The translations under genes were made by a program, and so were the position numbers. Below are positions 22,691 through 53,165 of a DNA stretch of 64,000 nt, one piece after another. The notes below the pieces were generated by a model, which saw only the letters and a program-made list of their open reading frames with translations, was not told the origin of the DNA and did no database searches. Numbering within the stretch: position 1 is the first letter of the stretch; every line of letters begins with the position of its first letter. Source of the DNA: Escherichia phage Killian; sequence record OQ446694.1; one strand, given 5' to 3'.

Positions 22691-24504
22691 TGGTGTTTAA
22701 CCCTATGCATGATTTCTTTATTTTTGCCGAGATTAAATCCGCGTTCATTCGGATTTCCCAAATAACCACAAGTTCTTCTTATTGTGTTCATCTTTTTAGG
22801 ATCAGTTTCTCCACAAATAGAACAAACAAACCCGTTTTCAGTAGGAGTCATTTCATGGGTACTTCCGCATGTAAAACATTTATCTACTGGCATATTAACA
22901 CCAAAATAATCTAAATGTTGTGCAGCATAATCCCATACAGCCTCAAGACCTTTTAGGTTATTTTTCATATCAGGAAGTTCAACATAAGAAATGTGACCAC
23001 CTGTCGCAATGAAATGATATGGGGCTTCGCGAGAAATCTTTTCAAATGGAGTAATATTTTCTTCTACCGAAACGTGGAAACTGTTAGTGTACCAGCCTTT
23101 ATCGGTAACATCTTTTACACTTCCATATTTTTCGGTATCAAGTTTACAGAAGCGATAGCACAGGTTTTCAGCAGGTGTAGAATACAAACTAAAAGCAAAA
23201 CCGGTTCTTTCAGTCCACTGCTTAAGATGAGCATTCATTTTAGTTAAAATTTCTTGTCCAATATCACGACCGACAAGAATATTCAATTCGTGAATACCAA
23301 TGTATCCTAGGGACACTGAACTTCTACCGTTTTTAAATAACTCAATTATATCGTCATCAGGTTTAAGACGAACCCCGAATGCACCTTCTTGATAAAGAAT
23401 AGGAGCAACAGTCGCTTTAACTCCTTTTAAGGAACTAATTCTACACATCAAAGCTTCAAAACACAAATCCATTCGTTCATTGAACAATTCAGCAAATTTC
23501 TGTTCATTGAACTGTGTTCCAATATAAGAATCTAGTGCAATGCGAGGAAGATTCAGTGTTACAACACCAAGATTATTACGTCCATCAAGAATTTCATTAC
23601 CAGTCGAATCTTTCCATACACCCAAGAAACTACGACAACCCATTGGAGAAACAGGAATAGATGAACCGGTGATAGCTTTATTGTTCTTAGCTGAAATAAT
23701 ATCAGGATACATTCTTTTGCTTGCACACTCTAGAGCAAGCTGCTTAATATCATAGTTTGGATCGTCTTTATAAAGATTAACACCTTCTTCAACGAACATA
23801 ACAAGCTTAGGGAAAATAGGAGTTATCCCATCACGACCAAGACCTTTAATACGATTTTTCAGAATTGCTTTCTGAATCATTCGTTCAGTCCAGTCAGTTC
23901 CCGTACCAAATGTAATTGTTACAAAAGGCGTTTGTCCGTTTGAACTAAAGAGAGTATTTACTTCATATTCATAAGCTTGGAATGCATCGTATACGTCTTT
24001 TTCTGTTTTAGACTGGGCGTAATTCAACGCATCAGCGATTTGCCATTTTTCTGCGTCCTCAATATGTTTTGCGTAGGTGCGTTTAACATAAGGAGAAAGG
24101 ACTTTATCTACATTCGCAAAAGTCGTTCCGCCATATTGATGGGAAGCAACCTGCGCAGTAATTTGTGCCATAATTGCAGTAGCAACGCCGATTGATTTAG
24201 GAGTTTCAATCTGCGCATTACCGAGCTTAAATCCATTCTCAAGCATTCCTTTTAAATCGACTAAACAGCAATTAGTAAAAGGCAATGATATACTGTAATC
24301 TAAATCATGAAAATGAATTAATCCAACATTATGTGCATTTACAATATGACTTGGAAGAATACGACAAGCGATATGTTTAGAAACAATACCGGCCATTAAA
24401 TCTCTTTTTGTTGGAAAGACACGAGAATCTTTGTTGGCGTTTTCGGTATTTAATTCTTTATCTTTATTTGAAATAAAATTTAAAACATCTTTCTCTAAAG
24501 ACAT
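22687..24504 (-). CDS. nrdD: anaerobic ribonucleoside-triphosphate reductase NrdD
   Basis: 605 aa uninterrupted; C-terminal glycyl radical motif RRTCGYLG and Zn-ribbon cysteines. Confidence 0.95.
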   Translation of the reverse strand: MSLEKDVLNFISNKDKELNTENANKDSRVFPTKRDLMAGIVSKHIACRILPSHIVNAHNVGLIHFHDLDYSISLPFTNCCLVDLKGMLENGFKLGNAQIETPKSIGVATAIMAQITAQVASHQYGGTTFANVDKVLSPYVKRTYAKHIEDAEKWQIADALNYAQSKTEKDVYDAFQAYEYEVNTLFSSNGQTPFVTITFGTGTDWTERMIQKAILKNRIKGLGRDGITPIFPKLVMFVEEGVNLYKDDPNYDIKQLALECASKRMYPDIISAKNNKAITGSSIPVSPMGCRSFLGVWKDSTGNEILDGRNNLGVVTLNLPRIALDSYIGTQFNEQKFAELFNERMDLCFEALMCRISSLKGVKATVAPILYQEGAFGVRLKPDDDIIELFKNGRSSVSLGYIGIHELNILVGRDIGQEILTKMNAHLKQWTERTGFAFSLYSTPAENLCYRFCKLDTEKYGSVKDVTDKGWYTNSFHVSVEENITPFEKISREAPYHFIATGGHISYVELPDMKNNLKGLEAVWDYAAQHLDYFGVNMPVDKCFTCGSTHEMTPTENGFVCSICGETDPKKMNTIRRTCGYLGNPNERGFNLGKNKEIMHRVKHQ

Positions 24505-25316
24505 AATTCTAATTTATCCTTTTGAAATTCTTCGTCTAAATATGGGTTCCAACCCATTTTAAACCTTTTGATGAAATTATCAATTCTAAATTTCGGTAAG
24601 TTTAAATCCGCAAAAATAGATGATTTACTTTTAAAATCTGGACCTAAATAATCATATAAAATTTCTGCGTATTTTAACCATAATATACAAGTACCAGATT
24701 TAATTGCTCTCGGAGTTTTCCAAGGTTTTACACCATACATCGGATTTCCACTTCCTTTATGCCTGATAGAAGATGAAATTCCAATTTTAATTTTAGCTTC
24801 CTTTGTATGCGAAAATCCACGATGCGGATTTTCTTTCCAGTATTTTTTAGAAGCTTCTGATATTTTCTTTCTGGCTAAATTAGTATGATGCTTTCCATAA
24901 AATCCATGATTTTTGCCTTTATTACGATTTCTTTTAATCATGGTTATTGATTGCTTTTCTCTAGTTTCTTTAGAAGGAGAAATACCATATGTCGTAAATT
25001 TGCCATCAGCATATGCTAAATTAAAATACTCTTTATTCCATACATCTTTTTCTATATTCTTTTGAAATTCAGCTTCAATGCTAGTTATTTGTTCATCTCC
25101 GACTAATTGAAAATATAATATTTCAACTTTCGGCGTTTCTTTCAACAGGGCTTTTTGAAATTCGGAAGATGACGAAGACGAATAATAAAATTTACCATTT
25201 TTATCAATAATATTCGTTCCGTCAAAAGTGCAATTGGTTTTACTTCCAATATAATAATATGGTGGGGTTTTAGCATTAATTCTACTAATAAATGATAGTT
25301 TATATACTACATTCAT
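24495..25316 (-). CDS. freestanding homing endonuclease-like protein (GIY-YIG-like N-terminus, NUMOD-type repeats)
   Basis: 273 aa; YYIGS motif; repeated NHGFYG/NPMYG motifs; between nrdD and 49. Confidence 0.55.
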   Translation of the reverse strand: MNVVYKLSFISRINAKTPPYYYIGSKTNCTFDGTNIIDKNGKFYYSSSSSSEFQKALLKETPKVEILYFQLVGDEQITSIEAEFQKNIEKDVWNKEYFNLAYADGKFTTYGISPSKETREKQSITMIKRNRNKGKNHGFYGKHHTNLARKKISEASKKYWKENPHRGFSHTKEAKIKIGISSSIRHKGSGNPMYGVKPWKTPRAIKSGTCILWLKYAEILYDYLGPDFKSKSSIFADLNLPKFRIDNFIKRFKMGWNPYLDEEFQKDKLELCL

Positions 25317-50243: not shown

Positions 50244-50807
50244 TTATTTATCTAGTTTAGTTATTATAGCTTCTGCGGCAGCTTTTAGCTTAGATGCAGT
50301 GTTAATACGATTTTTAATTTCAGTATACGCATCGCCAAGAACATCAAGGCTATCAGAATAAACACTTACACTATTGCGTTCGCTATTTGAAATAAAACCT
50401 TTAGTTTTACGATCAAAATCGGTGTACACGTCTTGAAGATCACGGGCAGCCTTCTTTGCATCATCCAATGCATCAAGAGCTTTATTCAAAGCATTAACAT
50501 ATTTTTTAGTGTCAAACATATTCTTAGAAATTTTAACAGGTGCACGTTCAGGAGTAGCTAAGGCAGATTTAGGAACCTGAGCGCCAGATGCCAATTTCTT
50601 AGAAATTTTGAAAAACGCTTTATTGAATTTATTTTCTTGACTCATCGTAAAAGAACTATTATCGATGTTATACATTTCAATAGCTTTAGCTTTCCACTTA
50701 AGAAAATCGCCACGGTCTTTTGGGTCTAATTGAAAGAATACTTTAGTAAGATCTGCTTCAGACGGTAATTTTGCTGCTTCGGTCAAAAATTCGGCATAGG
50801 TTTTCAT
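50244..50807 (-). CDS. internal protein-like (IPIII-like) with capsid-targeting N-terminus
   Basis: 187 aa; MKTYAEFLTEA N-terminus. Confidence 0.55.
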   Translation of the reverse strand: MKTYAEFLTEAAKLPSEADLTKVFFQLDPKDRGDFLKWKAKAIEMYNIDNSSFTMSQENKFNKAFFKISKKLASGAQVPKSALATPERAPVKISKNMFDTKKYVNALNKALDALDDAKKAARDLQDVYTDFDRKTKGFISNSERNSVSVYSDSLDVLGDAYTEIKNRINTASKLKAAAEAIITKLDK

Positions 50808-50897
50808 TTAAAATCCTTGAAATAATTTATCGGTTGGTTATTAATTATTTATTACTTTGTTATTATCCGCAACAGCATTCTCTATGTGATTCAAACT

Positions 50898-50925
50898 AAA
50901 AAGCCCCAACCTTTCGGTCGGGGCT
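50898..50925 (-). terminator. rho-independent terminator ending the tRNA/small-RNA transcription unit
   Basis: minus strand GCCCCGACC-GAAA-GGUUGGGGC followed by UUUUU. Confidence 0.6.
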
Positions 50926-51235
50926 AAGCCTTGCGGCAACCTTGTCGGGGTTCCACCTGCTAAGGCAAGTGTTTGTACGAAACGCCGGGATTTGAACCCG
51001 GTTATTAAGCAGTTGACGCTACTCAATATTTTTAAAAGGCCATATCTCGACCATATCCGAACGTTCCGTCAAAAACGCTACTCGGCTTACGGCAAAGATA
51101 TTTCCTCGAATCGATAATTCGGTGCGCCGTTTCTGCTGTGATGTAAGAGGGCATCAACAAATCATAAAGATTTATTAACGCAATTCCTTACCCAGGGAAC
51201 ATCAGTCCGACGACTTACCGGTAGCGACCCGGCTT
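50926..51235 (-). ncRNA. putative stable small RNA(s), analogous to T4 RNA species 1/2
   Basis: ORF-free region between tRNA-Arg and a GAAA-tetraloop terminator; contains tRNA-like T-arm CCGGGTTCAAATCCCGG. Confidence 0.35.
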
Positions 51236-51241
51236 CTTGTC

Positions 51242-51318
<77 letters not shown>

Positions 51319-51321
51319 TAA

Positions 51322-51987
51322 TTAAAATTTCATTTTTCGACCTTTAAACCATCCTTCTGGAATTGGGTCAGTTTTCTTAATACGTTTAGAAACTTTTTCA
51401 TCTAATGAATGAATCCACATCATACCAAATTGGGAATTCTTTTCGCCCTGTTGATGTTTATTTCTGGCGTGAGATTCTTTCATTTTATTAATAGTTTCAG
51501 GAGTATGGGTCTTGCCCAAGAAAGATTTAGTATTTAAAAATTTCTCTCTATACTTAGGATTATCCCAAAGCTGTTTAAACCTTTCTGAACCCATTTTACG
51601 ATATTTTTCTTTAAGGTCTGGGTCGTTCTCAAATCTGGTTTTAAAAGCGGCAGCTCCTTTTAAGGAAGCTTCTTTCTTTTTATCCAAATATTCTTTAGTG
51701 TTTAAATGGTCCCAACCACCTTCACCACCTAATTTCAAATTATAAACATCAGGGCGCTTTAAAAACTCTTCAGTCACAATATTCTTTTCTGACTCAAACA
51801 TAGAGGTTTTATCGTCAAAGAACTCTAATATTTCTTTAGAAAAATTTTCTATACCATACTTATCTTGGGCTCTTTTTAATAATTTACCAGAACCCATATA
51901 TCCATCATCTAAATTTTCGGTAGAATGAGCGCCTATATAGATTTTATTATTAATTTTATTTGTTATTTTATAAATGTAATGGAACAT
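51322..51987 (-). CDS. segB: GIY-YIG homing endonuclease (SegB-like) inside the tRNA island
   Basis: 221 aa; YIYKITN...KIYIGA GIY-YIG motif; lies between tRNA subclusters as T4 segB does. Confidence 0.65.
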   Translation of the reverse strand: MFHYIYKITNKINNKIYIGAHSTENLDDGYMGSGKLLKRAQDKYGIENFSKEILEFFDDKTSMFESEKNIVTEEFLKRPDVYNLKLGGEGGWDHLNTKEYLDKKKEASLKGAAAFKTRFENDPDLKEKYRKMGSERFKQLWDNPKYREKFLNTKSFLGKTHTPETINKMKESHARNKHQQGEKNSQFGMMWIHSLDEKVSKRIKKTDPIPEGWFKGRKMKF

Positions 51988-52028: not shown

Positions 52029-52100
52029 TGGCCCTGGGTGGAATTGAACCACCATCTGGCGATTATGAGTCGCTTGCTTGAACCTTCCAGCTACAGGGCC
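52029..52100 (-). tRNA. tRNA with CAU anticodon (Ile-lysidine type or Met)
   Basis: hand-folded; acceptor GGCCCTG/CAGGGCC; anticodon loop CTCATAA. Confidence 0.6.
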
Positions 52101-52106
52101 TTGATA

Positions 52107-52179
52107 TGCTGATTGACGGAATCGAACCGCCGACATCCTCATTACAAGTGAGGTGCTCTACCTACTGAGCTAAATCAGC
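52107..52179 (-). tRNA. tRNA-Thr (anticodon UGU)
   Basis: hand-folded; anticodon loop CTTGTAA; T-arm GGCGGTTCGATTCCGTC. Confidence 0.7.
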
Positions 52180-52186
52180 GAAATTA

Positions 52187-52273
52187 CGGAGGCGATAGGA
52201 TTTGAACCTATGAGTCGCCGGAGCGACTGCCGGTTTTCAAGACCGGTGCATTAAACCACTCTGCCACGCCTCC
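52187..52273 (-). tRNA. tRNA-Ser (anticodon UGA)
   Basis: hand-folded; long variable arm; anticodon loop CTTGAAA. Confidence 0.7.
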
Positions 52274-52275
52274 AG

Positions 52276-52349
52276 TCTCCGCGGCAGGATTTGAACCTGC
52301 GACATTCTGCTCCCAAAGCAGACGCTCTACCAAACTGAGCTACACGGAG
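52276..52349 (-). tRNA. tRNA-Pro (anticodon UGG)
   Basis: hand-folded; anticodon loop TTTGGGA; T-arm GCAGGTTCAAATCCTGC. Confidence 0.7.
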
Positions 52350-52361
52350 TAAATTAAATTT

Positions 52362-52433
<72 letters not shown>

Positions 52434-52439
52434 AAACTT

Positions 52440-52526
52440 TGGTACGAGAAGTGGGACTCGAACCCACAAGGAAATCATTCCGCAGCATTTTAAGTGCTGT
52501 GCCTTTACCAATTTGACCATTCTCGC
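52440..52526 (-). tRNA. tRNA-Leu (anticodon UAA)
   Basis: hand-folded; long variable arm; anticodon loop CTTAAAA; CCA encoded. Confidence 0.7.
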
Positions 52527-52532
52527 TCTATA

Positions 52533-53165
52533 TTATTTATTACGTGAAAAAGATTGTTCTATCAATTCTGGACACTTTCGTTCTATCCATTTTCTAGCTT
52601 TTTGTGGGCTTATACCTATTATTTTAGCAGCTTTACTAACCCATCCAAATTTAGAATAATCGATTTTAACTAATTCTTCGTAAATTTCATCAGTTAAAAT
52701 CTTTTCATTAATATTTACCAGTAAATGATATAATTTATTATCATTAGCAATTTTAATGAATCTTTTATAGTTTCCGCCTTTACTTAAACCTAATGAAGTA
52801 ATTGCAGATGATATAGTAGCCGAATTTAATAGTGCGTTTAAAATTTCTTCATCACTAACATTATAACGCTTTTTATTATTTTTAATATTTTTACCAGCAA
52901 AAGTATCAGTTTGCGAATGGCAATTTGGACATAATAATCTTAAATTTGATTTAAGATGATTTTTGTTATTTCCATCAATATGGTCTAATTGCAGAACAAT
53001 ATGCTTATTTTGCCATTTTGAAATTTTACAAATTGCACACTCATATGGAAAAATATTTTCTTTTATTATTTTGTCTTTCAGCTTTCCTGTACTAAAATTT
53101 GGATGTTTTCCTTCAAAAATTTCAGCTAATTTAGTATCCATAATATAATTCCCAATTATTAACAA
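52533..53165 (-). CDS. HNH homing endonuclease
   Basis: 210 aa; CxxC...HIDGNNKNH...CPNCH HNH/Zn motif; abuts tRNA-Leu. Confidence 0.65.
   Translation of the reverse strand: MLIIGNYIMDTKLAEIFEGKHPNFSTGKLKDKIIKENIFPYECAICKISKWQNKHIVLQLDHIDGNNKNHLKSNLRLLCPNCHSQTDTFAGKNIKNNKKRYNVSDEEILNALLNSATISSAITSLGLSKGGNYKRFIKIANDNKLYHLLVNINEKILTDEIYEELVKIDYSKFGWVSKAAKIIGISPQKARKWIERKCPELIEQSFSRNK

Follow-up and report, generated by a model that had tools for sequence, protein, structure and literature searches.

The transfer RNA (tRNA) operon of bacteriophage T4 encodes, besides its tRNAs, two small RNAs named species 1 (rnaC) and species 2 (rnaD) RNA. The operon is transcribed into a primary transcript of about 1.75 kilobases (kb), which is the precursor of eight tRNAs and of the species I and II RNAs, and transcription stops after the species I RNA gene (PMC2330249). 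The T4 RNAs accumulate late and are abundant and stable, both being seen on Northern blots, rnaC as a discrete RNA of about 140 nucleotides (nt) (PMC9697503), and the roles of RNAC and RNAD have been called unknown (PMC3014915), a statement also found in PMC9697503 and PMC12685909 and matching what an earlier reading of the DNA studied here, made from its letters alone (the sequence-only reading), had stated. The locus is textbook T4 biology, and its presence in a T4-like genome is therefore expected; the question of what the species 1 and 2 RNAs do is about 50 years old. We have analysed this locus in a stretch of 64,000 nt from Escherichia phage Killian (OQ446694.1), a T4-like sequence to which we refer as the window and in which all features discussed here lie on the minus strand. 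As judged by homology and synteny, the region after tRNA-Arg can be assigned to the orthologs of T4 rnaC and rnaD, an element already known, and the comparative structures of the two RNAs are what is new here.

The identity with the T4 RNAs is supported because the region aligns base for base with annotated genes and keeps their order. In the T4 record MT984581, rnaD is annotated as 'small, stable RNA; species 2 RNA', 1 nt after tRNA-Arg, and rnaC as 'species 1 RNA', 6 nt after rnaD; the RB3 record KM606994 carries the same annotation, and the order tRNA-Arg, rnaD, rnaC, terminator is common to the window, T4 and RB3. Through this alignment, the rnaD ortholog (120 nt) is placed at 51240..51121 and the rnaC ortholog (139 nt) at 51114..50976, with the same lengths and the same terminator as in T4. 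The rnaC sequence is 97.8% identical to that of T4 and 99.3% identical to the annotated rnaC of RB3/RB27, with 139 of 139 nt aligned, and rnaD is 94% identical to the T4-annotated gene; over the whole region the identity with T4 is about 95%, and of the sequences in the phage collection, that of Escherichia phage OMNI12 (genus Tequatrovirus) is the closest, with 98%. The differences from T4 are point differences only, namely UUCAAAU for UUCGAAU in the T-loop of rnaC, G for A just 3' of rnaD, and a few changes in the variable hairpin of rnaD. Clearly, the structured region that had been proposed after tRNA-Arg is real, with all its named elements on the minus strand, and the alignment to T4 that had been suggested as a check is gap-free with the same gene order, in agreement with the position of the T4 species 1 and 2 RNAs. 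Its extent has to be corrected, as it starts at 51240, 1 nt past the CCA of tRNA-Arg, and not at 51235, and what had been taken as a single region consists of four units: rnaD, rnaC, a trailer and the terminator.

A covariance search of the region against Rfam, at the gathering threshold and at E values up to 10, returned tRNAs only; the sub-threshold matches (isrK, the best, with E = 0.46, and plastid untranslated-region elements) either overlap tRNA-Arg or come from the opposite strand, and a family for rnaC or rnaD was not found in Rfam 15. Among phages the two RNAs are widespread: matches were obtained in 745 phage records for rnaC, of which 680 are at least 95% identical, and in 734 for the more variable rnaD. 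Diverged rnaC homologs, gathered by BLAST, two rounds of covariance-model searches and pattern scans, come from Gaprivervirus (VR7), Mosigvirus (RB69), Karamvirus (PG7), Kanagawavirus (IME523, PEi26, Kosakonia 305), Moonvirus (KM16), Gelderlandvirus (Melville, Proteus ABTNLPp2), Mosugukvirus (PM2), Marfavirus (F48, PWKp18) and Jiaodavirus (JD18 and 137 further records). A metagenome scan added merely two Marfavirus-type copies, a pattern scan of bacterial and archaeal genomes gave a model match in none of the 80 stretches listed out of 106, and a loose DNA pattern scan of IMG/VR returned mostly chance matches. Both RNAs have been overlooked or mislabelled in many phage records: they are unannotated in the RefSeq record of RB69 (24157-24426 of its stretch), the 3' 95 nt of rnaC are labelled 'tRNA-Met' in the PG7 record (1246-1340) and by ARAGORN there, and many public records place 'hypothetical protein' coding sequences (CDSs) over rnaC/rnaD. 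In Providencia phage PSTCR6 (3259-4205), a segB-like endonuclease gene and tRNA-Arg are followed by an rnaD copy that is 82% identical to that of the window, with tRNA-Ile right after it; a search of the 8-kb locus with the rnaC model gave no match. This segB-tRNA-Arg-rnaD block looks like one brought in by endonuclease homing.

Conserved folds of rnaC and rnaD

For rnaC, covariation shows a predicted cloverleaf topology in which the D and anticodon arms are replaced by hairpins of 70 and 26 nt and the anticodon loop is absent. The molecule is closed by an acceptor stem of 7 base pairs (bp) (51113..51107 with 50984..50978; CGAUUCG/CGUUUCG, with two central U.U oppositions), within which follow hairpin 1 (51106..51037, 70 nt, closed by GG/CC), an A-rich linker, hairpin 2 (51028..51003, 26 nt, with a 10-bp stem and a 6-nt loop) and a canonical T-arm (51001..50985), which joins the 3' strand of the acceptor stem without a spacer; the 3' end consists of the discriminator U (50977) and of A (50976). 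The tRNA-like T-arm that the sequence-only reading had picked out, CCGGG-UUCAAAU-CCCGG (CCGGGUUCAAAUCCCGG), is the T-arm of this module. The fold is more stable than those of shuffled sequences (rnaC part) (z = -4.2, with 0 of 200 as stable), and the window sequence scores 158.7 bits with the covariance model (R1). In an alignment of 16 distinct sequences from about ten genera, 91.5% of the cells are paired, against 37-48% in slid controls; 35 of the 48 pairs have changed on both sides, and none of 500 shuffles reaches the observed values. Indeed, the acceptor pair 3-70 is A-U in some sequences and G-C in others, and the U.U oppositions become U-A and A-U in PM2 and JD18. The tail after the discriminator is ACA in the T4 type and CCA in PM2, Marfavirus and Jiaodavirus. 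Comparative alignment had been named beforehand as the test on which the idea of structured RNAs could fail, and a conserved secondary structure was clearly found for both rnaC and rnaD.

A different fold of rnaC, a 'short tRNA' in which the internal ACGGAACG pairs with the 3' end and which corresponds to the 'tRNA-Met' of ARAGORN in PG7, was rejected: 78.9% of its cells are paired, no more than in the shuffles on average, and 425 of 500 shuffles reach or exceed this value. We also observed that the 9-mer GAGUAGCGU occurs twice in rnaC (51075-51083 and 51016-51024), in both cases forming the 5' strand that runs up to one of the apical loops; the repeat is kept in T4-type, Karamvirus and Moonvirus sequences and not beyond, and the pair may be the trace of an internal duplication.

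The apical loops of the two rnaC hairpins, UUGACG in loop 1 (51072..51067) and CGUCAA in loop 2 (51018..51013), are exact reverse complements and are proposed to be kissing partners. This sequence pair is found in the T4 type and in most genera, and is replaced by UUGGCG / CGCCAA in Marfavirus, by UUGCAG / CUGCAA in Jiaodavirus and by GAGACG / CGUCA, with four pairs left, in PM2. Over the 16 sequences the loop-loop helix is 98.9% paired, pair 49-108 being A-U in 12, G-C in three and C-G in one, and pair 50-107 being C-G in 15 and A-U in one. These two independent compensatory events, in Marfavirus and in Jiaodavirus, give good, if not overwhelming, support to the helix. Covariation thus shows that the rnaC loops are predicted to pair, either intramolecularly or intermolecularly: for a kiss inside one molecule, hairpin 1 would have to be bent back at its internal loops, and two molecules that pair reciprocally would do so without strain. 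Two other explanations of the loop sequences were discarded. A sigma-70 promoter behind the TTGACG sequence was not found at this site in a minus-strand scan, and the changes in the loops compensate each other in the RNA; a conserved rnaC-rnaD pairing (the rnaD loop GUCGCUA with UAGCG in rnaC) involves sequences neither of which is kept in other genera.

A distinct architecture resulted from the analysis of rnaD, for which the consensus structure was obtained with RNAalifold and then with a covariance model (R2) that gives the window sequence 140.9 bits. Covariation shows rnaD as a predicted rod, whose core hardly varies among phages and surrounds a hairpin of freely changing sequence. The rod comprises a 5' hairpin (51233..51217, loop GUCGCUA), an invariant long-range helix P1 (51214..51208 with 51129..51122; GUCGUCG/CGGCG(C)AC), helix P2 (UGUU/AGCA), a short helix P3 and a long variable hairpin (about 51193..51142). 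The fold is more stable than those of shuffled sequences (z = -2.5, with 3 of 200 as stable), and in 16 sequences that include distant homologs 93.2% of the cells are paired, against 30-45% in slid controls, with 16 of 25 pairs changed on both sides. The variable hairpin exists in at least three versions of unrelated sequence that keep the base pairs. Distant homologs were detected in Marfavirus, Moonvirus, Mosugukvirus and Karamvirus (32-40 bits, E values of 1e-6 to 1e-9), and the motifs UAAGUCGUCGG, UCCCUG, CACA and ACGGCGCA are conserved across all these genera, a conservation that exceeds the needs of structure alone. A hammerhead ribozyme (CUGAUG ... GAAAC) was considered for rnaD and rejected, its core not being kept in KM16 and PG7, its columns being those of the co-varying helix P2, and no match being found in Rfam.

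The 5' end of rnaD abuts the 3' end of a tRNA in T4-type phages, PG7 and Marfavirus. An open reading frame (ORF) of about 80-117 amino acids (aa) lies between tRNA-Arg and rnaD in SV76 (252-602), SP18 (362-601), BW-1 (1037-1387) and RB69 (24421-24765), so that rnaD does not always abut a tRNA. At the same place, phage vB_EcoM_005 (730-800) has an element of about 70 nt, made of a hairpin followed by AAGCCGUCGU ... GGACUGAU ... CCGGCGCAAC, which looks like a shortened extra copy of rnaD.

The two RNAs are also retained apart from the tRNAs. In RB69, with two tRNAs, and VR7, with one annotated in the stretch fetched, both RNAs are kept almost unchanged; PEi26 has rnaC alone, behind an ORF, and in Kosakonia 305 rnaC is likewise behind an ORF. 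In the Dhakavirus phages B-01 (799-960) and UP19 (881-1040), rnaC is lost and rnaD is fused to the trailer (ACUUGCCUAGCAGGUGGAACCCCGACAAGGUU) that follows rnaC in the T4 type, so that rnaC and rnaD can occur separately. We count RB69, VR7 and PEi26 in favour of the present reading, with both RNAs under selection that is independent of the tRNAs.

A link between structure and fitness comes from phage BW-1, in which evolution on E. coli ECOR34 produced one convergent single-nucleotide polymorphism (SNP) in all adapted lines, placed in rnaD (PMC12685909, 2025). Mapped onto the model alignment, this SNP (164264) falls on rnaD nt 78 from the start of the R2 hit and is an A-to-G change in the RNA, which turns CACAG-UUUUA-CUAUG into CACAG-UUUUA-CUGUG and restores a C-G pair of the apical stem of the variable hairpin; the restored pair is present in SV76 and JE01. 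As read from this mapping, the SNP would tie the structure of rnaD to fitness on one host.

Layout of the locus and its transcription unit

Seven tRNAs were found in the window by ARAGORN and Rfam: those for Leu, Gly, Pro, Ser, Thr and Met(CAU) at 52526..52029, and tRNA-Arg(UCU), the last true tRNA of the operon, at 51318..51242 (RF00005, 69.2 bits), with an encoded CCA whose end is 1 nt upstream of the rnaD start. At the place that segB has in T4, after tRNA-Met(CAU) and ahead of tRNA-Arg, lies a segB-like GIY-YIG homing endonuclease gene (51987..51322, 221 aa), with its stop codon 4 nt upstream of tRNA-Arg. The gap between the annotated T4 genes maps onto a 6-nt spacer between rnaD and rnaC (GAAUUA, 51120..51115), which would be cut away during processing. 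After rnaC comes a 3' trailer of 50 nt (50975..50926) with small hairpins, including CACUUGCC-UUAG-GCAGGUG and others; it is identical in the window, T4, RB3 and OMNI12, stands directly 3' of rnaD in Dhakavirus, and is probably part of the precursor only. The intrinsic terminator of the tRNA operon follows (50925..50898, 28 nt): the GAAA-tetraloop terminator of the sequence-only reading was recovered with a 10-bp stem, seven of whose ten pairs are G-C, and a T-run (U-run in the RNA), the stem, loop and T-run occupying 50925..50902 and reaching 50898. Trailer and terminator together fold more stably than shuffled sequences (z = -3.8, with 0 of 200 as stable). In a promoter-box scan, no T4 late promoter (TATAAATA) was found upstream of rnaD/rnaC closer than 54004.

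Some further observations concern the borders of the locus. The heptamer CCCCGAC is present twice, in the trailer (50944-50950) and in the 5' arm of the terminator (50917-50923), and the trailer copy could instead pair with the 3' arm of the terminator (GGUUGGGG) into an alternative, larger terminator hairpin. Beyond the terminator, the next gene of the window (50807..50244, 187 aa) has no Pfam match, and OMNI12 has an extra ORF of 474 nt between terminator and next gene (1982-2455 of its locus) that is not in the window (about 50810-50900). At the other end of the operon, tRNA-Gln, which is directly upstream of tRNA-Leu in T4, RB3 and OMNI12, is not found in the window, where unrelated sequence starts exactly at the 5' end of tRNA-Leu. 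This sequence is the 3'-terminal part of an ORF of 210 aa (53165..52533), for which a weak match to HNH endonucleases was obtained (17 bits, under the Pfam cut-off); tRNA-Gln may have been displaced by a mobile endonuclease gene (window 52527-53165).

Biogenesis and function of the two RNAs

We consider it very probable that the identity, the biogenesis and the secondary structure of the two RNAs, their function being excluded, are as set out here. From the anatomy of the locus and the published work on T4, one long transcript would run through the tRNAs, segB, tRNA-Arg, rnaD and rnaC and end at the terminator. With its acceptor stem, T-arm and discriminator of the tRNA type, rnaC would be excised like a tRNA by the tRNA-processing machinery, with RNase P, recognising the acceptor/T-arm, acting at the 5' side, followed by 3' trimming and possibly CCA repair. 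In PG7, KM16 and Proteus/Melville-type phages, rnaC is flanked by tRNA-Trp and tRNA-Gly, with about 5 nt to either neighbour, which is the context of a substrate of tRNA-processing enzymes, and in T4 there is the p2Sp1 precursor with its RNase P dependence. rnaD would be the remainder, bounded by the 3' end of tRNA-Arg on one side and by the RNase P cut on the other, and would survive because of its closed rod fold.

As for the function, a tentative idea is that rnaC acts as a non-decoding tRNA mimic, a decoy or competitor on a factor, of the host or of the phage, by which the acceptor/T-arm end or the elbow is recognised, both RNAs being accessory and of use in some hosts only. A more specific version is somewhat less likely still: rnaC would mimic a tRNA end, perhaps CCA-tailed, its loops would lock the body or form a homodimer with two tRNA-like ends, and together with rnaD it would be a host-specific counter-measure that titrates a bacterial factor by which the acceptor ends or elbows of tRNAs are recognised or attacked, such as an immunity nuclease directed against tRNAs or a toxin that modifies their 3' ends.

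Several points weigh against this picture. The transcript ends of both RNAs are taken over from the T4 annotation, and RNase P cleavage, 3' trimming and the CCA status of rnaC are steps that we infer; the T4-type tail is U-ACA and not U-CCA, and the annotated 5' end has one extra U ahead of the 7-bp stem. The loop-loop helix is supported by two independent lineages, with PM2 forming only four of the six pairs, and covariation cannot separate an intramolecular kiss from dimerisation. The sequence identifies no binding partner, the decoy idea drawing on shape and host dependence only. T4 deletions that cover the region grow on laboratory strains, so that any function is dispensable there.

The strongest of the competing explanations, with a chance that we put as low as that of the simple decoy, is that both RNAs are by-products of processing, that is, structured spacers at the end of the operon (an RNase P site, a block to 3'-exonucleases, a support of the terminator) that pile up as they are hard to degrade. 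This would suit the position of both RNAs at the 3' end of the operon, the rnaD-like elements right after tRNAs in several genera, the central rnaD hairpin that is free to vary in sequence, the complete loss of rnaC in Dhakavirus and the dispensability of the region in laboratory hosts. However, by-products should not be nearly invariant across genera in parts that stability does not need, as are both loops and the A-rich linker of rnaC and, in rnaD, the motifs UAAGUCGUCGG, UCCCUG and ACGGCGCA, nor do they account well for RB69 and VR7, which retain both RNAs though most of their tRNAs are gone, or for one adaptive SNP by which a stem of rnaD is mended and virulence on one host is raised.

It is rather improbable that the two RNAs are regulatory small RNAs (sRNAs) acting by base pairing on phage or host messenger RNAs, in the sense of the 'small regulatory RNAs' loosely named in the literature. 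Their abundance, stability and late accumulation (PMC9697503) would fit, and so would the invariant single-stranded stretches of rnaD and its invariant 7-nt loop GUCGCUA. However, the most conserved rnaC loops pair and co-vary with each other and are therefore not free seed regions, the 5' loop of rnaD is not kept in distant homologs, and no target has been identified. With regard to the sRNAs that depend on Hfq, none of their families gives a significant match in Rfam, the best being the wrong-strand isrK hit already mentioned; the annotated 3' ends of rnaC and rnaD lie upstream of the terminator.

Even less credit is due to the disfavoured view that rnaC is a decaying tRNA pseudogene, disrupted by insertions and no longer under selection. 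Its acceptor stem and T-arm, its location inside tRNA clusters and the 'tRNA-Met' call of ARAGORN and the PG7 GenBank record recall such an origin, but decay is hard to reconcile with 680 of 745 matching records being at least 95% identical to the window copy, or with non-tRNA arms kept by compensatory substitutions over about ten genera; in addition, the acceptor pairing of the 'short tRNA' has no covariation support and the Rfam tRNA model gives no match to rnaC. Finally, small proteins, as set by automatic annotation in many GenBank records over ORFs of up to 61 aa, can be rejected: in agreement with the sequence-only reading, which saw no credible ORF, the ORFs between tRNA-Arg and the terminator (36-61 aa) all start with TTG, the longest (51026..50841) extends past the terminator into a part that lacks conservation in T4 and RB3, substitutions obey base-pairing rules and not codon positions, and the products were identified as RNAs in the work on T4.

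With the identity, processing and folds proposed above, the comparative models turn the old question of function into specific tests, which concern the tRNA-type processing module, the 6-bp loop pairing, the invariant motifs of rnaD and the host ECOR34.

Comparison with known RNA families

When compared with canonical tRNAs (RF00005), rnaC has the 7-bp acceptor stem, the 5-bp T-stem, the UUCRAAU loop with the arm set spacer-free against the acceptor, the discriminator base, the four-way-junction topology and the position inside tRNA clusters. Unlike them, it lacks the D-arm, the 7-nt anticodon loop and the 2-nt linker after the acceptor stem, and the window copy gives no match with ARAGORN, nor with the Rfam tRNA model at the gathering score or at E values up to 10. 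It therefore cannot be counted as a tRNA, because the D and anticodon arms are absent and tRNA models are blind to it. The rod of rnaD is without an acceptor/T-arm module.

The design of rnaC is also reminiscent of transfer-messenger RNA (tmRNA), in which an acceptor stem and a T-arm are likewise set on a non-tRNA body that is closed by tertiary pairing and has no anticodon. In contrast to tmRNA, rnaC is far smaller and its pair 3-70 is A-U, a G3.U70 pair being present only by chance in PM2. An assignment as tmRNA was thus rejected: ARAGORN finds none, G3.U70 is absent here and 139 nt leave no room for a tag reading frame.

Non-coding RNAs that imitate part of a tRNA are also known as YrlA, the Y-RNA-like RNAs of bacteria and phages, some of which are phage-encoded. 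In these the ends form the Ro-binding stem and the tRNA-like part is internal, whereas in rnaC the ends form the acceptor stem, and no Rfam match to YrlA was found at E values up to 10. ROOL and GOLLD are large RNAs of phages and prophages that often lie beside tRNA genes and assemble via intermolecular kissing loops. They are four to six times larger than the RNAs described here and have unrelated folds, without a match to them in Rfam searches of this region; what they share with rnaC is that they are phage-encoded, associated with tRNA clusters and endowed with conserved loop-loop pairing, and by analogy a multimerisation of rnaC through its loops could be envisaged, as a possibility only.

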